This document shows, in pieces, positions 3,355 through 50,789 of a stretch of DNA of 64,000 nucleotides (within the stretch, counting starts at the first letter, position 1; each line of letters starts with the position of its first letter). The notes under the pieces were generated by a model, which searched no databases, had not been told where the DNA came from, and saw only the letters and a program-made list of their open reading frames with translations. The translations under genes were made by a program, and so were the position numbers. Location: NCBI RefSeq assembly GCF_004010195.1, contig NC_057719.1, positions 5,820,570 to 5,884,569 of the forward strand. Reading direction: 5' to 3'. This DNA comes from Chiloscyllium plagiosum. Lineage: Eukaryota.

Positions 3355-3854
3355 NNNNNNNNNNNNNNNNNNNNNNNNNNNNNNNNNNNNNNNNNNNNNN
3401 NNNNNNNNNNNNNNNNNNNNNNNNNNNNNNNNNNNNNNNNNNNNNNNNNNNNNNNNNNNNNNNNNNNNNNNNNNNNNNNNNNNNNNNNNNNNNNNNNNNN
3501 NNNNNNNNNNNNNNNNNNNNNNNNNNNNNNNNNNNNNNNNNNNNNNNNNNNNNNNNNNNNNNNNNNNNNNNNNNNNNNNNNNNNNNNNNNNNNNNNNNNN
3601 NNNNNNNNNNNNNNNNNNNNNNNNNNNNNNNNNNNNNNNNNNNNNNNNNNNNNNNNNNNNNNNNNNNNNNNNNNNNNNNNNNNNNNNNNNNNNNNNNNNN
3701 NNNNNNNNNNNNNNNNNNNNNNNNNNNNNNNNNNNNNNNNNNNNNNNNNNNNNNNNNNNNNNNNNNNNNNNNNNNNNNNNNNNNNNNNNNNNNNNNNNNN
3801 NNNNNNNNNNNNNNNNNNNNNNNNNNNNNNNNNNNNNNNNNNNNNNNNNNNNNN
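3355..3854. other. Assembly gap (500 N)
   Basis: N run. Confidence 1.
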
Positions 3855-7261: not shown

Positions 7262-7941
7262 AAAATGTGTTGCTGGAAAAGCGCAGCAGGTCAGGCAGCA
7301 TCCAAGGAGCAGGAGAATCGACGTTTCGGGCATGAACCCTTCTTCAGGAATGAGGAAAGTGTGCCAAGCAGGCTAAGATAAAAGGTAGGGAGGAGGGACT
7401 TGGGGGAGGGGCGTTGGAAATGCGATAGGTGGAAGGAGGTTAAGGTGAGGGTGATAGGCCGGAGTGGGNNNNNNNNNNNNNNNNNNNNNNNNNNNNNNNN
7501 NNNNNNNNNNNNNNNNNNNNNNNNNNNNNNNNNNNNNNNNNNNNNNNNNNNNNNNNNNNNNNNNNNNNNNNNNNNNNNNNNNNNNNNNNNNNNNNNNNNN
7601 NNNNNNNNNNNNNNNNNNGGTGCAGCGGATGCAGTAAATGATGTGTGTGGAGGTGCAGGTGAATTTGTGGCGGATATGGAAGCATCCCGTGGGGCCTTAG
7701 AGGGAAGTAAGGGGGGAGGTGTGGGCGCAAGTTTTGCATTTCTTGAGATTGCAGGAGAAAGTGCCGGGAGTGGAGGTTGGGTTGGTGGGGGTTATGGACC
7801 TGACGAGGGAGTCACGGAGGGAGTGGTCTTTTCGGAATGCTGATAGGGGAGGGGAGGGAAATATATCCCTGGTGGTGGGGTCCGTTTGGAGGTGGCGGAA
7901 ATGACGACGGATGATACGATGTATATGGAGGTTGGTGGGAC
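7262..7941 (-). mobile_element. 5'-truncated Penelope-like retroelement (Neptune-type Cys linker plus start of GIY-YIG endonuclease, then hammerhead-bearing terminus)
   Basis: Minus-strand peptides RHFRHLQTDPTTRDIFPSPPLSAFRKDHSLRDSLVRS..CNLKKCKTC and HKFTCTSTHIIYCIRC. Hammerhead core at 7320-7347 on the same strand. Flanked by the 17-bp direct repeat CAACTCCAAGAGAAATG (7245-7261, 7942-7958). Spans a 150-N gap. Confidence 0.85.
7469..7618. other. Assembly gap (150 N)
   Basis: N run. Confidence 1.
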
Positions 7942-9499
7942 CAACTCCAAGAGAAATGCCAGGAATAACACCAACCACTCTACGTGGCCTTCATCAACCT
8001 TACCAAGACTTTTGACTCAGTAATCGGAAAGCACTTTTAAAGATCCTTCCAAAAGGCCAGCTGTCCAGTGAAATTCATTAACATTCTCTGTCTTCACTAT
8101 GACAGATGGTCCTCACTGTAAAATGACACAATCCTTTGAGGTCAAGGAGGGAGGTTTCATCACCTACACAATTTTTTCCATCTTCGTTGTTGTCATTCTT
8201 CATCTTATCACGAACAGACTTTCCAGTGGTTTGGACATTATCTACAGGACGGATGGCAAACGTTGCCACCTTAACCAGTTGAAATCCAAGAAGAAAACGA
8301 CACTAACCTCACTTGCGTATGGATGACCGCATCATCTCTGCTCTCTTAGAAGAGAATCTTCAAACCTCACTTGATACCGAAGAATTAGTCTCAGCCTCCA
8401 CCTCAAGAAGACTCAAATCCTTTACCAACCTGTGCCAGGCAAAGTTGTGGTCCATCCCTCCATTAAGATCAACACATCCAGTCTGCAAGCGCCAACTTTG
8501 GATGGGAATCTTCAACAACTGTGACATCCATGTTGTTACCAAGATCTTTGTATATAAGGCTGCCATCCCTCCAACTCTTCTACTTGGCTGTCACAGACGC
8601 TACCTCAGGACACTTGAGAAGTATCATCAATGTTGCTTGAAACAGATTCCTCATATCAGCTGAGCAGACAGACATGCTAACATTGGTATCCTTGAAGTAG
8701 CTAATGGCTCCGGCATCAAAACCATGATAAATTGATACCAACTCCAGTGGGCTGGATACTTGCTTAAGATGCCTGGGTTCTGACTACCAAAGCAAACTTC
8801 TTCACCCAACTCAAGAAATGCACTTGAATGTGCAGAGGACACCTCGTTTCAAAGACTCCATGAAGGCTTCCCTGAAGAGATGCCAGAAGTCACATGACAT
8901 CAGGTTATAGTCCAGGTTTATTTGAAGTCACAAGGTTTTGGAGAATGCAACATCGATGTCAACACATGGGAGGTCCTGATTCAGAAGAAACCGACTTGGA
9001 TGAAAGTCCTGTACGAAGGCATACATTTCTTTGAAAACACCTGGTGACAAGATGACGAACTGGAGAAAGGAATATCAACAATCTCAAGGCCAAGGACCAA
9101 ATTCCACCTTCCAGAAACACTGACCAAATATGCAGTTGGAAATACACCTGTAGGACTGGGCTCACCAGCCACTCAACGACTCTCAGAACCCATGACCAGT
9201 GACATGGAGTTTCTTTGTGGACAGTTATACATGTTAGCAAGTGATTACTGATGATGGATTGAAATTGAGAACAATCAAGAGTCCACAATTAGAGGAGTGG
9301 AGATACCTTTGGTTTATTGAGGGACTTGAGGGTAATAGAGAGTAGTGACCAAGGACATGAATGAATTCCAAATTATAGACAATGACAGGACAGAAAAAGG
9401 CCGTTCAGCCCATTGTGCTCATACTGGCTGAGCTATCTAGATTCTGTGACAATTATTAGAAACGTTTTACATTTCTACACATATGCAAGCCTCATATGC

Positions 9500-14963: not shown

Positions 14964-15136
14964 ACAATTGCCAGACAACTTGCCGAAATACTACTACGAG
15001 GAATGTGTGAGCAGAGCTACTGGAATCCACTGGAAGACCCTCCACAGCATTCCCTACTGGATGACCCGCTACATGTGAGCTCTAACACAAAGAATTATGC
15101 ACTAAGCAGGAGGCCCAAAGTGTATACTGGAGATAG
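14964..15136 (+). CDS. TTC7B: TTC7B internal exon B (173 nt): TIARQLAEILLRGMCEQSYWNPLEDPP...KVYTGD
   Basis: Pyrimidine tract plus ttgcag acceptor; GTGAGT donor at 15137. Phase 0 to phase 2; continues directly from ...QNLRM. Confidence 0.96.
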
Positions 15137-16219
15137 GTGAGTCGTAGGAAGATGAAAACATACGCTTCATCATTTTAGTCTATTCTGCCATCCAAATAAA
15201 TCTGGTTTATAATCCATGATAATCTTGCCAGACACAAATCTAACAATCTCAGTTTCAGTTGACTCCCATCCTAAGCAGTACATTTGAGAAAAAGAGTTCC
15301 ACATTTCCAGCACCTCATGGGGCCATCCAGCTCAATTCCATACCTTGGCTTTATGATGCAAAATGTCCTCCACATAAACTGAGGTTGATTATTTTGAATG
15401 ATCTATCCACCCAAATTGGGTAAGAAAAATGGCGCCTGTTCTCTGTTATTGAAAAATGTTTAATTCAAATTCTGGGTCCTTACAGAATTTTGTTATAACA
15501 AAAATAATAATTGATTTCTCAGGAACAGATGGATAAGCCCAACACTGGAAGAGTAATGAATTATTCAATGCTTGCTATTTTTTGGTGGCACCCTGAAAGC
15601 TGTAGTATTATTCAGGGCTAATTTCTAGTTTTCTCCTTGTTTTCTTAGGTCTTTCATACGAAACCTAATTATCGTCATTAAGCTTCAGAATGGACTATTC
15701 TGCCTAGGGAGGTTTTTTGGTGCTGAACCTTATGAATGTTTGGCCCCAGATGGTTTAACTAATTAAGTGCCCTTAATGTCAGTTGCACTGATAATTGTGA
15801 TCCTTAAGAACTGCAGAACTGCATCTGATGGTTTGCTCAGAAATTTATTTTGGTTTTATGATGATAAATTACATTGCCTGTATTGATTGTACAGCTGGGA
15901 CACCAGCTCAGTTATACAGATTGTTGATGATGAACATTTATTTCCCAAGGTACATGCTATCTAATCCTTTTAAGCCATCAAGTGCATGCCAATTTATTTT
16001 GAGGCTTACTTTTATTCCTTTCAAATCAGATGCCACATCATCTTCCATATGTTGGTTTACCTGGCTGTTTCAGAAGGAAGTTTATTGTCCTAAAAGAAGC
16101 CCTTGCTAGTTTCTTTTGCTAAGACAAAGCTACTTTGGTAGGCTGTTGAATAGGCTTAAATCCTTAGCTTAGTTTTCTTTATTTCTATTTATTATAAATT
16201 CTTCTCGAAATCAATGACC

Positions 16220-17486: not shown

Positions 17487-18774
17487 AGTGATGCATTATA
17501 TACAGAGTTAACAGAAAACTGTGATCAGGCACCCCAAAGAGCCCACCAATAGCAGTTTGGGGCAAGACAGATTCCATGGTTCCTCAGCAACTCATTCAGA
17601 TGGTAGTGACTGCATGGGCCATTGAATCTCATTACAACTTTGTTTCCTTTGCCTGGGATTCCAGTTCATTTTTTGAAGACTAATATTGGAACTCATTTAG
17701 AAATTGCTTGGTCTTGGACTGTCTCAGAACTGATCTAGTCTGCTCACACAAGACTTCCTTCTGCTAGATTCTTCAGGTGGCACTTCAATACCTACTCATG
17801 AGCACAATTCCAACTCTTATGCAGACAGCTACTTTTATTGAGCTGACAGTGCTCCTGGATTTCTCCAACCTCCAGTATTTCACAGCTTCACCAAATAAGT
17901 ATTACCTGTTGGCTTCCTTTAACCATGCTGTCAGCTAACAGATAGATCATAGGACTTCAGTGAGCCTTCAAAGTTAAACATAGCTCTTAACTGCACAGAG
18001 ATGACGTATTTGGCTGCCCCTATCTCTGTATCGCAGAGCTCGTGATCTTCCATTGCCTTCTCAGCTCCTCAGGATTCCTTGTGAACCCTGAGTGCCTGGA
18101 GCCTGCTAACTAAAGCATCTTTGCTGCTTACAGCTTTTTCTCCCTTTTTCTAACCTTAATTAACCAACAGGTGGAATTAGCAGCCAGTATCATCTCTAAG
18201 ATGTACAACTGAACAACCGCACAGAGGTTCCACACGTGATGCATTGCCTTCTGATTCCAAAACCACCTCTGCATACAGATCTGAGAAGTCTGTGCAATAG
18301 CAGGAAAATTGACAGGGAAACCTAGATAGCAACCTGCTACTGTCTCTGACCAGCTAACTGGATCCTTTGTACACCACTATCATAGGCAGGCACAGCTGCC
18401 TTTGCAACAACTGCCATAGCACCCATAATACTGTGCTGAAGTTTTGAAGCCTGGATTATTCTGTGCACACATCAGAACTCTTGCCTGGAAATCACTCTCT
18501 CAGAGGGACATGTATTCTGTGTTTCTTAACAAATAAAAATAATGTTAGAGGAACTGAGAATCAGTGAAGTGAAGAAGAGCTCATTGGGTTAGCACTAGAA
18601 TCTGATCCAAGTTTTGGGAAAACTGAAGTTTCTGAAATGTACGAAAGCAAATTGTGAAGTAATTTAAATCACTGTAATAGTTGTAGAGTAGCTTAGGCCA
18701 CCGACGCAATTAAGCCTATAGCAAGTTAAAAATCACACGACACCAGGTTATAGTCCAACAGGTTTAATTGGAAG

Positions 18775-18809
18775 CACTAGCTTTCGGAGCACCGCTCCTT
18801 CATCAGGTG
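18775..18809 (-). ncRNA. Mirror hammerhead motif (PLE family 2)
   Basis: Reverse strand reads CAC-CUGAUGA-A-GGAGC-ggu-GCUCC-GAAAG-CUA-GUG. Confidence 0.7.
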
Positions 18810-18818
18810 ATTGACAAT

Positions 18819-18853
18819 CACCTGATGAAGGAGCGGCGCTCCGAAAGCTAGTG
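18819..18853 (+). ncRNA. Minimal type I hammerhead ribozyme motif (PLE family 2)
   Basis: CAC-CUGAUGA-A-GGAGC-ggc-GCUCC-GAAAG-CUA^-GUG: 3-bp stem I, 5-bp stem II, palindromic AGCU stem III. Confidence 0.75.
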
Positions 18854-20934
18854 CTTCCAATTAAACCTGTTGGACTATAACCTGGTGTTGTGTGATTTTT
18901 AACTTTGTACACCCCAGTCCAACACCGGCACCTCCAACTCAAGCCTATAGCAGCCTTTTTTATTAATCAAGTAATCCTGTTCGTCCCGTTCTTCATCATG
19001 TCACTGCAGTTTTTCTTTGTATATTTGTCCAATTCCCTTATGATAGCCACAGAATTTGTACCCACTTCCCTAAATAGAATGCTTTGCAAATCCTTACCAC
19101 TCATATAATAAAAAACACTTTTTCCTCATTTTCTTTTCAATTTTTTGACATTTATCTTAAATATGAACTCTCTGGTCATAAATTCTTGGTCATTGAAAAT
19201 ATGATTTTAAAATACTTCTGTTGAATCTTCTCTTAGCCTTCCCTGTGCTAAGGAAAACCATCCCAGCTTCTCCAGTCTATCCAAATAACTATTAACACTC
19301 ATTCTTAGAACAAATTCCAGTAAATATCATTTGTATTGTCTTCAAAGTCTTCATGATTTTCCTACATTGAGACCTGAGGTGATAAAGGCATATGTAATGA
19401 TTTCAGTAGCGAAGAACAGGGGATGTTACAGAGAAGATGAATAGGCGAAGTTTTCTAGTGGAGAGAATCTAAGGTTCACCTTTGAGATGACCAGATGATG
19501 AAGTTGCTAACACTCTATTTTGAACCAAGAATATGGCAGAGTATGAAGAGCAGACCAGAAAATTGAAAAGGTACAGATTTTATGTTAGGCTCAAGAGCAA
19601 GGCTTTCATCTGAAGGCTTAGTGAGAAGTCACTCAAGTACTTATTTTTCAAGCAGCATTCACTGTCCAGTATCAAAGGCAAAGAATATTCACTAGTTGTC
19701 AATGCCTTTGGGATCATACCTCAGTTCCACTCATGACCTGAGTAGAGGGGAGAGATGAACGAATGGTGATTCTGACCATGTGAGCATAACCACCAGCAGA
19801 ATAGCAGGCTTTCAAACCTCTAATTGTGACCCAACCAAAATACAACAGAATTTAGCAGATTTATGTTTCCTAATACTTCCTGGAAGGTTTGGAATATTGC
19901 TGTTATAAATTTATTGACGCTTACTTTCTGGAGTGATCTGCAGGTGTAAAACAGAAGCTTTGTAAATTTCAGTTAGCTGATACAGACTCTACTGTCTGCT
20001 GTTATCTGGTGTCAGACAGTCTGGATTGGAGCAAGTGAAAAGGAGTAGAGTGCACAGCAGACTACAGGAAAGATCTCCAAATTTTCACTACAATCTGCAA
20101 AGGAGTGCTTCCTGACATCACCTGTCTGAACAGACTAGATCTAAGTTTAAACTTGTACCATCACCACACCTTGTTTTGCACTTGTCCACCAGATGAAGTA
20201 GATTCTCCTGTCTGTCCTTTCAACTCTTTGAACAACTTAAACACCTCAGTTAGCTTTCTCCTTAATTTCCTACATTCAGGAGAGTAGAAGCTCAGTCTTT
20301 GCCATAAGACCAGGGGAGCAGGATCTCCTTTCCCTTCCAGTGCTGAACAATTTTACAAAGCAAGAAGTTATGAAACATGGTTTCTGTGTCTGCACTGAGT
20401 GGTACATTTAAAAATTAGCTTGAATTGTCATTCTTCAGTACCTTGGACATTCTGCTGTTCAGGTTTATCCAGAACCAAAGCTTTTTATTCATGTGAGCAC
20501 AAATTGCAGTCATGTTGAAAAAGTTCTACTTCTGATGTATCTTCAAATAGCTACTGTCACAAAAGTCCTGAGGTAATCAGCCAAATCTCATGGATCAGAA
20601 AAGCAAATTTTCTTTGATGAAGAGTGTGGTTAAAATGCAAAATTCACTTCCTCACAGAATAGTTAAGGTGAATAGTATGAGAAGTCTGGATAATTATGTG
20701 AGGGAGAAAGGAATGGATGGATATTTTAACAGGTCAAGTGAATTAAAATGGGGGAAACTTTTATGGAATATATGGAATTTTAAAACCATTAGGCCAAATG
20801 ACCAGTTTCAGTTCTGTTAAGTCATTGTCAAATTGTTGCTATGCACTTTAATTCAAAGCACATAACATATTAAGTCTGAGGATGTAACTTACAGGTGCAG
20901 AACTGGTGTTTTCCTTGATGCACCATGTAACAGT

Positions 20935-23091: not shown

Positions 23092-24436
23092 GTAAGTGTG
23101 ATTACTTGACAACTGAGGCACAAGTTCACTGTGTTGACATTTAATGTAATTTTAATAGTCCCGATGGAAATGATCACTTAATGCTTGTGAAATAGGGATG
23201 CTATGAAGAAATAGCATGTTAATAAATTCTGACTGTTCACTTTGACAGGTGCATTGGACTGCGCAGTTACAGCAAAGAAAGAATTCTCTTTAACTGGGCA
23301 TTCTGAGCTCCCATCTGCATACAGAAAAGTGCCATTCAACCCAACAAATCCAATGCTGGTGATTACTCAGCATTCCAGTGCCAAACACAGTGAGCACTGC
23401 ACTGTCTGTCTGGATTGTAGGTCAAAGTCCCTGGCTCACAAGCAAGGATGCTGTCAATTGAGCTATGGCTAGCACTTCAGATTCACAAAATCTTTACAGC
23501 AGCGAATAACGTCATTTGGCCATTTGGTCTCTGCATCACCTGTCCAAATGAACATTGTGCTTTAGTGCCCATTCTTCTGCCTCCTTGGTGTAACTATACA
23601 CGTTGTTCCTTTTCAAATATTGAACTAATGAACTCCATCACTGATTCAGTGAGGTCAAGGCTGACTACAGTCCATTCTTCAATAATGCAATGGTTGTGTC
23701 CTACCCAGTGTTATAAAAAAATTATGCTTTAGAAAGAGCACTTAAAGTGTTGACTCTGTAATTATATTACAGTCAACACATGTATTAAAGGTTTGTGCAG
23801 TAAAACAGTGTCCCCAATTCGTCAATCATGTCGCATTGAATTCGCATTGACACAATGCGAGTTATAACAATGATTTGTGTTGTGTCCGTAAAGATCAGCA
23901 AGAGAACAGATTGACTCTAGGTAAATTTTAACCAGCTTACCTATATCTATATAAATTCAGTCAATGATCATGAGAAGATTTATTCACAAGTTACATATCA
24001 TTTTTACAAGTTTTAACATTCCAAATAAGATGAAGTACTTGCAAGTCAACCAAATTTGATTTGGTATAATAAGGACTATGTAGCAAAGTTCTTGAGCTTA
24101 ATTCTTCTAGGTTGAAACTACATTCCAGTTTCAATTTACTGTCTTAAAAATAATTTTTTAATCACAAATCACTCGAATAAATTCCCATGCAGCCACCCAT
24201 ATGGGCTAGACCTACTTAGTTACTCCAGCAATTTGTGTTTTTGTTTCAAATCTCCAACATCCGCAGTTGTTTTTTTTTAATTTAGTATATCATAACACGT
24301 CTGAACTGGTTGATTAGAAAATATCAATCACCTGCCTTACCAAAGGGCAAAGTGAGGTCTGCAGATGCTGGAGATCAAAGTTGAAACTTTATTGCTGGAA
24401 CAGCACAGCAGGTCAGGCAGCATCCAGGGAACAGGA

Positions 24437-24474
24437 GATTCGACGTTTCGGGCACAGGCCCTTCTTCAGGAAAC
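24437..24474 (-). ncRNA. Mirror hammerhead motif on the other arm of the palindrome
   Basis: Reverse strand reads GUUUC-CUGAAGA-A-GGGC-cugu-GCCC-GAAAC-GUC-GAAUC (one stem I mismatch). Confidence 0.65.
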
Positions 24475-24475
24475 T

Positions 24476-24513
24476 GATTCCTGAAGAAGGGCCTGTGCCC
24501 GAAACGTCGAATC
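24476..24513 (+). ncRNA. Minimal type I hammerhead ribozyme motif (PLE family 1)
   Basis: GAUUC-CUGAAGA-A-GGGC-cugu-GCCC-GAAAC-GUC^-GAAUC: perfect 5-bp stem I, full core, 4-bp stem II, palindromic ACGU stem III. Activity untested. Confidence 0.75.
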
Positions 24514-25195
24514 TCCTGTTCCCTGGATGCTGCCTGACCTGCTGTGCTGTTCCAGCAATAAAGTTTCAACTTACCAAAGGGCAAGATAGGTGACTAGTTT
24601 CCAAACTGAGAAACCAGGTTTCATCGACCTGTTGAGTTGAAGGAGGATGCTCTACAATTGTCCCAATTTGAGAGCTTTTGAAGGCACAGCTGGAAAGCAA
24701 ATGGCTGACCTCTGGAAGGTACCCACTTCTCTTGCCACCAACATCCTCACCCAGTGCCTCTCCCTGCCATGACCCCACCCTATGAAGAGAGCATAAAAGG
24801 AACTTGCCTTCTCACTGTTGGATCCTCCCCTCACCCTAATGAATAGGCCTCAGCCAGCAGATGAAAGGAGCCGCTTCTGGAGACCTAGGGTTGCCAGCAT
24901 TGAGGCCTCTGATTTTCTGAGAGACCTGTCAATGCTTTGCCTGTCAACTCTCAATGTTCACCAATTCTCAATTGTGAATTTTCTTGGCATTGGGAGTGAC
25001 GTGTTAGTGCATAAAGATATTGATTGACATTGGTAAAGGAACCTTCATTTTACAAGTTTTTTTTTCAATTTCTTAGTTTCCTTATTTCATTTCTGAGTTT
25101 TCCATTTCAACGTAAGCTTAATGGACTGATGTCATACTGTGTCCTCTTGTGTGATCTATGTTCTGTGTGATCTATGTGATCTGTGTCCTCTTGTG

Positions 25196-30516: not shown

Positions 30517-31741
30517 AAGATACCTCATGATCCTTATTGAGTTCTTTAAGAAGGCGACCAAACAGGTGGATGAGAGTAAAGTGGTTGATGTGGTGTATAT
30601 GGATTTCAGTAAGGTGTTTGGTAGAGTTTCCCATGGTAGGCCATTGCACAAAATTAGGAGGCATGGGGTTTAGTGGTTTGGATCAGAAATTGGCTAGCTG
30701 AAATAAGGTAGAGGATAGTGGTTGATGGGAAATGTTCATCCTGGAATTCAGTAACTAGTGGGGTACCGCAAGGATCTGTTTTGGGTGTACTGTTGTTTGT
30801 CATTTTTATTAATGACCTGGATGAGGGCATAGAAGGATGGATTAGTAAATTTGCAGATGATACTAATGTCAGTAGAGTTGTGGGTGGTGATGAAGGATGT
30901 TGTAGGTTACAGAGAGACATTGGTAAGCTGCAGAGCTGGGCTGAGTTGAGAGGTGACAAATGGAGTTTAATGCAGAAACGTGTGAGGTGATTCACTTTGG
31001 AAGGAGTAACAGAAATGTGGAGCACCTGGCTAATAGTAAGATTCAGCAGGGAGGTCTTGGTGTCCAGGTACATGGATCCTTGAAAATTCCCACCCAGGTT
31101 GATAGGGTTGTTAAGAAGGCATACGGTGTGTTAGTTTTTATTGGGAGAGGGATTGAGTTTTGGAACCATGAGATCATGCTGCAGCTGTATAAAACTCTGG
31201 TGCAGCCACATTTGGATTATTGTGTACAGTTCTAGTCACGTATTATAGGAAAGATGTGGAAGCTTTGGAAAGGGTTCAGAAGAGACTTACTAGGATGTTG
31301 CCTGGTATGGAGGGAAGGTCATATGAGGAAAGGCTGAGGGACTTGAGGCTGTTTTCGTTAGAGAGAAGGTGGTTGAGAGGTGAGTTAATTGAGACATATA
31401 GAAAATTAACAGAGGGTTAGATAGGGTGGACAGGGAGAGCCTTTTTCCAAGAATGGTGACGGTGAGCACGAGGGGGCATAGCTTTAAATTGAGGGGTGAT
31501 AGATATAGGACAGATGTCAGAGGTAGTTTCTTTCCTCAGAGAGTAGTAGGGGCGTGGAATGCACTGCCTGCAACAGTAGTAGATTCGCCAACTTTATGGC
31601 CATTTAAATGGTCATTGGATAGGCATATGGACGAGAATGAAATAGTGTAGGTTAGATGGGCTTCAGACTGGTTTCACAGGTCGGCGCAGCATCAAGGGCC
31701 GAAGGGCATGCACTGCGCTGTAATGTTCTATGTTCTATCTC
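30517..31741 (+). mobile_element. CR1 (HER1-like) LINE 3' fragment nested in the Rex1-like LINE
   Basis: RT motifs VDVVYMDFSKVF, GVPQGSVLG, SKFADDT; tail gttctatgttcta; atctc repeated at both junctions. Confidence 0.92.
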
Positions 31742-31854: not shown

Positions 31855-32354
31855 NNNNNNNNNNNNNNNNNNNNNNNNNNNNNNNNNNNNNNNNNNNNNN
31901 NNNNNNNNNNNNNNNNNNNNNNNNNNNNNNNNNNNNNNNNNNNNNNNNNNNNNNNNNNNNNNNNNNNNNNNNNNNNNNNNNNNNNNNNNNNNNNNNNNNN
32001 NNNNNNNNNNNNNNNNNNNNNNNNNNNNNNNNNNNNNNNNNNNNNNNNNNNNNNNNNNNNNNNNNNNNNNNNNNNNNNNNNNNNNNNNNNNNNNNNNNNN
32101 NNNNNNNNNNNNNNNNNNNNNNNNNNNNNNNNNNNNNNNNNNNNNNNNNNNNNNNNNNNNNNNNNNNNNNNNNNNNNNNNNNNNNNNNNNNNNNNNNNNN
32201 NNNNNNNNNNNNNNNNNNNNNNNNNNNNNNNNNNNNNNNNNNNNNNNNNNNNNNNNNNNNNNNNNNNNNNNNNNNNNNNNNNNNNNNNNNNNNNNNNNNN
32301 NNNNNNNNNNNNNNNNNNNNNNNNNNNNNNNNNNNNNNNNNNNNNNNNNNNNNN
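31855..32354. other. Assembly gap (500 N)
   Basis: N run. Confidence 1.
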
Positions 32355-33582: not shown

Positions 33583-33920
33583 GGTGGTCTGACCAATTGC
33601 AGCTAGAACATGAAGCCTTGCAGTTGTCCTTAAAAATAAGAAAGGCTATCTTCTTAATATGTTCTGAAGGGGGTTTAATCTGGTCCTTGTTGCTTGTGTT
33701 GAAGAGTATTATGGATGTGGTGTTATCGCTTATCCTTACTGATTACAATCAGTGGGTAAGGAAGTCAAGGATCCATTTGCAGATCAGGAAGCAGAGTTCT
33801 TGTTCGCAGAGTTTGGAGATTAGTTTTCTTGGAATTATGGTGTTGAAGGTGGAGCCCAAGTCAATAAATAGGTGGTGGTGTTATCCAGATGTTTTACTTC
33901 ACTGTGTCATTTTATTCCAG

Positions 33921-34058
33921 GCTAACAGGGATGCAGTGCTTAGCCGGATCCCAGAACACAACAACGATCGCATTATCAGTTTACAGAGTGCCTCCATTGT
34001 CTACGATCTTCTAACAATCGCACTAGGAAGGCGTGGTCAATATGAAATGCTGTCTGAG
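33921..34058 (+). CDS. TTC7B: TTC7B internal exon D (138 nt): ANRDAVLSRIPEH...ALGRRGQYEMLSE
   Basis: ttttattccag acceptor; GTGAGT donor at 34059; phase 0/0. Confidence 0.96.
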
Positions 34059-34261
34059 GTGAGTTCAATCAAGGAGATTCATACAAGGCACAATCAGAAC
34101 ACAGATAGAAAGCTGTGAACAAGTCTGGGACTGTTACCTAAGGAAAGATATACTGGCATTGGAGGCAGTCCAGAGAAGGTTCACTAGGAGAGACTAGCTT
34201 TTGAGAAAATCTTGAGCAGATGGACCTATTAGAACTATAGAAAGAGGTGCAACCTTTTTGG

Positions 34262-37331: not shown

Positions 37332-37420
37332 ATATCTGGTTGTAAGTTTGCTTACTGAGGTGGAAGGTTTGTTTTCAGATGTTTTGTCACCATTCTAGGT
37401 AACAACATCAGTGAGCCTCA
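37332..37420 (-). mobile_element. Decayed PLE terminus, probable family 4
   Basis: Minus strand CA-CUGAUGu-U-GUUACC-uagaau-GGUGAC-aAAAC-aUC-UG: hammerhead layout with a 6-bp stem II and core mutations. Confidence 0.5.
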
Positions 37421-39618: not shown

Positions 39619-39835
39619 GACAAAAACTGAAATTGCTGGATAAACTCAGCAGGTCTGGCAGCACATGTGAAGAGAAAGCAGGAGTAATGTTTCAAGTCCA
39701 GTGATTCTTCTTCAGCACTGGACACGAGACTCAAAACAATAATTCTGCTTTCTTTCCACAGATGCTGCCAGACCAGCTGAGTTTCTCCAGCAAGTTCTTA
39801 TTTGTGTTTCAGATCTTCAGCACCTGCAGTTCTTT
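39619..39835. mobile_element. Old fold-back element, probable PLE family 3
   Basis: Arms ttgctggataaactcagcaggtctggcagca / tgctgccagaccagctgagtttctccagcaa. Minus strand has a decayed core CUGAAGA-A-GAAUC-acug-GACUU-GAAAC. Related fragments at ~633-714, 24220-24270, 42775-42870, 51580-51650 and 63030-63085. Confidence 0.65.
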
Positions 39836-48848: not shown

Positions 48849-50789
48849 TGCCCTTCATGAACCCATGCTGCGTCTGTCCAATGAGGCAATTTCTATCAAG
48901 ATGCCTTGCTATTTCTTCCTTGATAATAGATGTGAGCACCTTCCCCATTACAGAAGTTAAGCTAACCAGTCTATAATTCCCCATCTTTTGTCTACCTCCC
49001 TTTTTAAATAGTGGTGTCACATTTGCTGTTTTCCAAATGAGAGTCCATCAAATTTTGGAAAATTACCACTAGTTCACTTGTTATTTCTCCTGCCATCTCT
49101 TTTAGTGCCCTGGGATGCATTCCATCAGGGCCAGGAGACCTATCTATCCTTAGCTCCATTAGCTTGCCCAGCACTACCTCTTCTGTAATAATGATTGTTT
49201 CCAGATCCTCACCAGCCGTCGTCTCTTTGTCAATTACTGGCATGTTACGAGTGTCCTCCACTGTGCAGACTGGCACAAAATACCTCTTCAATGCCTCGCC
49301 CATTTCATCATACTCCATAATTAAATGCCCCTTCTCTCAAGGAGCAATGTTTACTTTAGCCACCTTTTTTTTTGTTTTATATATTTATCGAAACTTTTGC
49401 TATCTGTCTTTATATTCTGTGCTAGTTTTTTCTCATGTTCTGTCTTACTTTTCTTTATTGCTGTTTTTGTGGATTTCTGTTGACCTTTAAGGTTTTCCCA
49501 ATCTTTAGGTTTCCTGCTGTTTTTGGCCACTTTGTATGCCTTCTCTTTCAATTTGATAGCCTTCCTTATTTCCTTAGACACCCATGGCAAGTTACCCATT
49601 TTTCTTATAGTCCTTCCCTTTCACTGGAATGTATTTTTGCTGAGCACTGAAAAATTGCCTTGAAAGTCGTCCACTACTCGTCAACTGTCCCACCATAAAA
49701 TTTTTGTTTTCAGTCTACTTTAGCGAAGTCCTCCCTCATCCTATTGTCGTCTCCCTTGTTTAAGCACAGCACTCTGGTATTGGATTTTATTTTCACACTC
49801 TCCATCTATATTCTAAGTTCAACCATACTGTGATCGCTCCTTCTAAGAGGATCCCTAACTCTGAGGTAATTAATTATTCCTGCCTCATTACACAGGACCA
49901 GATCTAGGATTGCTTGCTCCCTTGTCGGTTCCATTACATACTGTTCAAGAAAACTATCGCGGATACACTCAATGCACTCCTCAAGGCTACCCTGACTGAG
50001 CAGGTTCGACCAATTGACATGTAGATTAAAATCCCCCAGGATAATTGTCATACCATTTTTACAGGCATTAGTTATTTCCTTGTTTATTGCCCTCCCCGAT
50101 GTGATATTATTATTTGTGCAGTTAACTCATTAACCTTTCTTTTACCCCTTGCATTTTCTCAAACCAACATTACAGGAATTCAATCCTGTTCTGTAGTGGA
50201 AGAATCACAAATTAATTGATGATTGCACAGAACTAATCCTCTCTAACCTTATTGTTTGCGTTTAATCACAATTCCTGGCCTAACTTTCAATGCAACAATT
50301 TGCTGACCTTCAGATTGTCACAGTAAATCTGTTGGAACTTGTTTGACACATTACCTGGAGTAGAATTTTTTTTCAAAGTCATCTGCAATATCTTTTTTGA
50401 GAGGACAGGAACATTTCTAAAATTAATTATGACTTTGAGTCACCCAGTGATGTCAGAACATACTGTGTGAAGAAGATCTAACAGTCTGAGTACATCAGAA
50501 AGAATATATTAATTAATTTGAAAGGGCTACCAGAGGATACAGGCAATGAGAAGGGACAGGAGTATTAAAGTAAATCCCTGCAGTTGAGTTGATACCAGTA
50601 CAGGGCGATGGCTCAGTGCTGGGGCTGTTCCATTGGTTGTCTAACCTTGACCATTAAATTTAGTAATTGATCTGCAGGTATTTATATTATAAAGCAGCAT
50701 CTCTGTAGAGCAAAACTGGTTTAACCCTTTGGATCGATGTCCTGACATTGATGTAAATGTTCTTATGTAAAGTCATTGACTTGAAGCTC

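Follow-up and report, generated by a model that had tools for sequence, protein, structure and literature searches.

What kind of element left a ribozyme-like sequence at this locus, and does the self-complementary tetramer within it keep the RNAs of one repeat family apart from those of another, as an earlier note on this DNA had proposed? In order to answer these questions, we analysed the window (the whole stretch of DNA around the motif, 64 kb in length) together with DNA and RNA sequencing runs and published hammerhead systems.

A minimal type I hammerhead of a known class

Read directly, the plus strand at 18819-18853 is CAC CUGAUGA A GGAGC ggc GCUCC GAA AGCU A GUG. This is exactly the motif that the earlier note had described, with stems that pair, an extra A, and a self-complementary AGCU (Table 1). 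A strict descriptor, which demanded the exact core, at least 4 bp in helix II and at least 3 bp in helix I, found four sites in the 64 kb window, two in the repeat family of this motif (family 2) and two in another (family 1), and no site in 200 dinucleotide shuffles. All four sites contain a palindromic tetramer. The family 2 motif is a genuine minimal hammerhead-ribozyme sequence.

Minimal hammerheads (min-HHR) were described by Cervera and De la Pena (2014, PMC4209133) in the pseudo-LTRs of metazoan Penelope-like elements (PLEs), where they are marked by an extra nucleotide, a G10.1-C11.1 pair, a palindromic 15.2-16.2 stretch and occurrence in opposite-strand pairs. The family 2 motif has all of the sequence traits listed there: the core CUGANGA with GAAA and NUH, the extra nucleotide after position 9 (A18829), G10.1-C11.1 (G18830-C18842), a short helix I of 3 bp next to a paired helix II of 5 bp, and a loop-less palindromic helix III, which is AGCU in the family majority. 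The AU-rich 3' flank, the presence of several dissimilar families per genome and the opposite-strand pairs are also shared. Motifs of the AGCU type have been in print since 2014, with variants in turtle, rotifers and Schistosoma (PMC4209133), and family 2 is an ordinary addition to this class, AGCU version included, so that one more family joins those already known. Shark names were not found in the text of the supplement of that paper. Rfam returned no match for the family 2 element at gathering score, and no hammerhead model was among the 20 matches listed up to an E value of 10. Generic hairpin models that appeared at E values up to 10 matched only the palindrome centre, far below their own cut-offs, and were discarded.

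Table 1. Features of the family 2 insertion, its surroundings and the comparison families (positions in the window; a dot marks features without strand)
Feature	Position	Strand	Remark
Minimal type I hammerhead motif	18819..18853	+	read and strict descriptor
Helix I, 3 bp, CAC/GUG	18819-21/18851-53	+	
Core CUGAUGA	18822-28	+	
Extra A	18829	+	
Helix II, 5 bp, GGAGC/GCUCC	18830-34/18838-42	+	3-nt loop
GAA	18843-45	+	
Tetramer AGCU	18846-49	+	
H17	A18850	+	predicted cut after A18850
Second hammerhead motif, inverted arm	18775..18809	-	strict-descriptor site 18778-18806
Whole insertion, 217 bp	18724..18940	.	family 2 end piece twice, head-to-head, right copy tailed
Target-site duplication, left, 12 bp	18712..18723	+	direct repeat
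Target-site duplication, right, 12 bp	18941..18952	+	direct repeat
AC-rich 35-bp tail, right arm only	18906..18940	+	predicted pairing with 18867-18875
Poly(A)-signal hexamer, ATTAAA	18860..18865	+	
Third family 2 fragment, decayed	8882..8943	-	hammerhead core lost
Family 1 comparison element, head-to-head	24345..24572	.	two intact ACGU hammerhead motifs, 24442-24469 minus and 24481-24508 plus
Family 3 element, decayed, head-to-head	39632..39802	.	tetramers ACAU and ACAA; related to family 1
Family 4 motif, decayed, one copy	37375..37416	-	tetramer ACAU
TTC7-family exons	14965-15137 and about 33918-34115	+	TTC7_N; splice-site ends at 14965-15137

Anatomy and likely origin of the insertion

The motif lies in an arm of a palindrome that the earlier note had not described, and family 2 in the window therefore amounts to a single insertion and a decayed fragment (8882-8943). 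The arms of the insertion (18723-18813 and 18815-18905) are 91 nt each and 98% complementary, they start 7 nt ahead of the hammerhead core, and the twin motifs differ by one base, which lies in loop II.

For PLE insertions, PMC3846280 and PMC8557442 describe pseudo-LTRs (pLTRs) that are inverted head-to-head, a one-sided tail of 30-40 bp and a target-site duplication (TSD). The family 2 insertion resembles this unit in its head-to-head arms, the 35-bp tail at one end and the 12-bp TSD, and so shows the inverted, 5'-truncated pLTR with one-sided tail and TSD expected of an EN+ PLE; it differs from the unit as described in these sources in being the end piece alone, without the coding body. We scanned 150 of the 180 N-free open reading frames of at least 70 aa in the 64 kb window with Pfam. 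Since no PLE reading frame, and in particular no GIY-YIG match, was found in these 150, membership rests on structure and motif. These indicate that the insertion is likely the dead end piece (pseudo-LTR) of a Penelope-like element, and we infer a PLE origin for family 2. A metagenome scan with the family 2 motif and a scan of viral contigs gave no matches, and a metagenome scan with the downstream 20-mer gave a single locus (L001, 2733-2752) on a bacterial contig without a hammerhead, which we attribute to chance. Searches of the literature for palindromic shark PLEs also returned nothing.

The spacing within the insertion recalls Poseidon of Anolis carolinensis (PAc), in which reverse transcription initiates 111-118 nt downstream of the point where helix II begins (Frangieh et al., 2024, PMC11167929). 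In the family 2 insertion 111 nt separate the start of helix II from the end of the tail, and thus both have a hammerhead about 110 nt ahead of the end of an AC-rich tail. They also share two classes of 3' ends and the lack of RNA reads ending at the cut site. In contrast to family 2, which is known here from sequence and reads, PAc has been assayed for cleavage and its protein dependence; cleavage was protein-assisted, and hammerhead mutants were without effect on insertion in vitro (PMC11167929).

Pfam TTC7_N matches twice in the window, once on each side of the insertion. As the insertion lies between these two stretches, and as the first of them has splice-site ends, it is intronic in a vertebrate-type TTC7 gene. 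The Pfam scan also gave one weak GDH_C match, and RVT_1 and Exo_endo_phos_2 fragments at 30712-30987 and 49809-50126, which are probably LINE remnants and lie far from the element. Three assembly gaps of N are present in the window (3355-3854, 7469-7618 and 31855-32354).

Relation to the other families in the window

The earlier note had called family 2 unrelated to family 1, and the two could indeed not be aligned beyond the core: their alignment score of 20 was reached by 15 of 500 shuffles (14.7 ± 2.2). For families 1 and 3 the score was 39, which none of 500 shuffles reached. Families 3 and 4 were found to be present and decayed, again as described. The term "full covariation", which the note had used for the comparison of families 1 and 2, had to be given up, because the contrast of two unalignable families is not a covariation test and because no compensatory pair was seen within family 2 among the best 40 of 86 variant rows, which are unphased. 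What the comparison demonstrates is an architecture conserved between unalignable families. The claim that a minimal hammerhead with a loop-less palindromic helix III, and hence a predicted need for a dimer, has been kept across families is supported, and was already published for families that are "full of covariations" and whose cleavage is low and dimer-dependent (PMC4209133).

The tetramer of family 1 is ACGU in 8 of 13 arms (the others are AUGU twice, ACAU, GCGU and AUUU), with three further arms representing single CpG-decay forms of ACGU. The six arms of family 3 have ACAU twice, ACAA, ACCU and, as assigned by eye, AUGU and AUAU, and are best explained as decayed ACGU. The ACAU of family 4 is one step from either ACGU or AUAU and hence ambiguous, and probably goes back to ACGU. 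The family 1 palindrome (24336-24584) is flanked by a 15-bp direct repeat, and most family 1 arms start within a few bases of helix I.

Abundance and decay of family 2 copies

The right arm was compared with four sequencing runs, three represented by contigs (organisms A, B and C) and one by RNA reads (organism A). It aligned to 91,528, 83,464 and 14,899 contigs from A, B and C, respectively, figures that are not copy numbers, and to 3,953 RNA reads. Family 2 is very abundant in all three organisms. Shares are given below as depth-weighted contig counts, in which some differences in the two large runs are uncounted.

No position from 18844 to 18849 was among the best 40 of 86 variant rows, in which the majority changes fell at 18835 and 18861, and AGCU is therefore the majority tetramer. 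The family consensus thus retains the palindromic tetramer on which the earlier note had staked its reading. Variation in family 2 is mainly CpG decay, with C>T or G>A at 29 of the 37 listed places in run X1. In two DNA runs, C11.1 was decayed in 20.5% and 22.4%, and the catalytic G12 in 15.0% and 17.0%. CpG positions elsewhere were decayed to a similar extent (17-24% in the loop and helix II, 14-24% in the tail), so that there is no sign among the genomic copies that function has been maintained. The 3' ends fell into two classes, near 18903-18906 and near 18936-18941, which is what the tail model predicts.

A subfamily with two extra letters behind 18850 accounted for 4% of depth in X1, less than 0.1% in X10, 8% in X16, and 21% of the reads in X21. 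Just 5' of 18820, the loose ends of other copies have a pyrimidine-rich consensus that ends in CAG a few bases ahead of helix I, with an agreement of only 0.4-0.56. By analogy with Penelope of Drosophila virilis, it is perhaps a 3' splice site.

Polyadenylated RNAs with an uncut hammerhead

In two DNA runs, AATAAA accounts for 53% and 62% of the depth at the hexamer downstream of the motif. In the RNA run X21, poly(A) follows 18877 (731 reads) and 18880 (931 reads), 12-15 nt past the hexamer, together 1,662 reads with poly(A) in the two loose-end rows that have the highest support. The poly(A) site in use is located 27-30 nt past the predicted hammerhead cut site. On the poly(A) strand, X21 depth dropped from 2,694 to 587 at the poly(A) sites and stayed level over the predicted cut (2,562 before it, 2,627 after it). 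The poly(A)-bearing reads and the unbroken depth through the motif indicate that polyadenylated family 2 RNAs with an uncut hammerhead exist. No pile of X21 reads beginning or ending at 18850 was found, at a place where short cut products (tailed, about 30 nt) would likely be lost, and for this reason the flat depth does not mean absence of cleavage. The X21 reads may stem from few loci. On polyadenylation of pLTRs, nothing was found in the literature beyond one review. Young, very abundant and equipped with a poly(A) site beside the ribozyme, family 2 offers a practical way into the role of PLE hammerheads in vivo.

The tetramer and pairing between families

In a double hammerhead, helix III and both copies of helix I form between the two molecules. 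Together, helix I and the tetramer could act as an address, so that co-resident PLE families pair and cut within the family only. As family 2 RNAs end at a poly(A) site about 30 nt past the cut, dimer cleavage in trans would strip poly(A) in proportion to the family's own transcript level and serve this very high-copy retroelement as a family-specific, self-limiting switch. If family-restricted dimer cleavage were true, these would be natural orthogonal ribozyme pairs that limit their own retroelements; we consider the whole scheme very improbable.

RNAs of families 1 and 2 can form two of the four helix III pairs and one contiguous helix I pair per core. Crude nearest-neighbour estimates, which ignore the core, predicted -21.3 and -17.3 kcal/mol for the homodimers and -0.3 kcal/mol for the mixed dimer of families 1 and 2. 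A dimer with the same tetramer and different helix I was predicted at -7.9 kcal/mol, one with the same helix I and different tetramers at -8.9 kcal/mol. Relative to two monomers, even the homodimers gained no stability (+1.1 and +3.3 kcal/mol). Helix I alone is thus predicted to exclude mixed dimers, and, as the penalties for helix I only and for the tetramer only are similar, the tetramer would help to separate family 1 from family 2 but would be redundant with helix I.

The earlier note had given this role to the tetramer, as a family-specific pairing code that would prevent mixed dimers of co-resident families. Part of this idea holds up in our calculations, since AGCU is the majority form in family 2, a meeting of families 1 and 2 produces two helix III mismatches, and the tetramer mismatch alone costs about 8 kcal/mol (predicted shift from -17.3 to -8.9 kcal/mol). 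The part concerning a selected code fares worse, because a mismatch confined to helix I is predicted to cost about the same and because ACGU is common to families 1, 3 and probably 4. Moreover, A15.1 and U16.1 are fixed, and hence only four Watson-Crick palindromes are possible. Figure S3 of PMC4209133 points in the same direction: by our hand count, 41 of its 56 rows are loop-less (the other 15, in which helix III is longer, were not counted), and of these 29 have ACGU, 5 AGCU, 5 AUAU, 1 AAUU and 1 ACAU, with at least two rows sharing a tetramer in 7 of the 8 species that have two or more loop-less rows. It is therefore very unlikely that the tetramer is a selected family code. The turtle AGCU row in the same figure agrees with the family 2 majority at 10 of the 11 letters just downstream, a likeness noted by eye that weakly suggests inheritance of AGCU within a lineage.

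Neither family-specific dimer codes nor hammerhead heterodimer specificity in retroelements were found in the open-licence papers searched. Dimer cleavage has reportedly been described by Lunse, Weinberg and Breaker, and mixed dimers may already be treated there.

Predicted folding and the fate of the insertion

The whole palindrome had a predicted folding energy of -172 kcal/mol (z -27), and the closing pair of helix II a probability of 2.5e-16 in this context versus 0.54 in one arm. The predicted fold of the family 2 insertion is thus a single long hairpin and not that of a ribozyme. Single arms, with folding z-scores of -0.48 and -0.09, gave no support, and in the monomer a competing hairpin was preferred over the tetramer (probability 0.86).

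This bears on the possibility that the short palindrome is a self-propagating, non-autonomous unit whose ribozyme is active in its own cycle, much as in retrozymes. Family 2 is very abundant, mostly as short pieces, and it is expressed and polyadenylated, all of which speaks for such a unit. Like the non-LTR retrozymes described in PMC7229834 and bioRxiv 10.64898/2026.07.22.740005, it is a short repeat without coding sequence that contains a type I hammerhead, of the dimer type in vertebrates. Those retrozymes, however, are direct tandem arrays of units with a hammerhead each, whereas the family 2 insertion is an inverted pair with no array and only one motif per strand, hence without a dimer in cis. 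Furthermore, the motif would be sequestered by the predicted hairpin, the copies retain sequence 5' of the cut site, indicating that the template was uncut, and the opposite-strand joints occur at many different places. We therefore regard self-propagation as highly improbable. That the host has put the copy at 18724..18940 to use in the TTC7 intron, either for polyadenylation or as a ribozyme with a regulatory role, is extremely implausible even with the intact motif and hexamer in TTC7 sense orientation, because the 98% identical arms and the perfect TSD explain intactness by youth and only 56 of the 3,953 RNA reads were 99% alike to the right arm.

The explanation that best accounts for the results taken together, and that we hold with high confidence, is a 217-bp head-to-head insertion, TSD-flanked and tailed on one side, that carries a minimal type I hammerhead twice and is likely a dead PLE pseudo-LTR. 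In the source PLE, the minimal hammerhead would have cleaved as a dimer; the insertion, as a dead end piece, would fold as the long hairpin predicted above. The tetramer would be one of four answers to the requirement for self-pairing, likely inherited within the lineage, and any separation of families, likely a by-product of divergence, would owe at least as much to helix I.

Base changes in the RNA were inspected for signs of editing. T>C and A>G at 18889-18904 in X21 were set aside, because their counts were near-equal on one strand and they may reflect one expressed haplotype. At 18878-18880, the RNA had A>G at 7.8% and 10.9% in reads of one strand and T>C at 16.5% in those of the opposite strand, compared with 1-2% for the same changes in both DNA runs. 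These strand-asymmetric changes, in RNA and DNA from different individuals, would fit A-to-I editing of long hairpins and agree with the long-hairpin fold predicted for the insertion.
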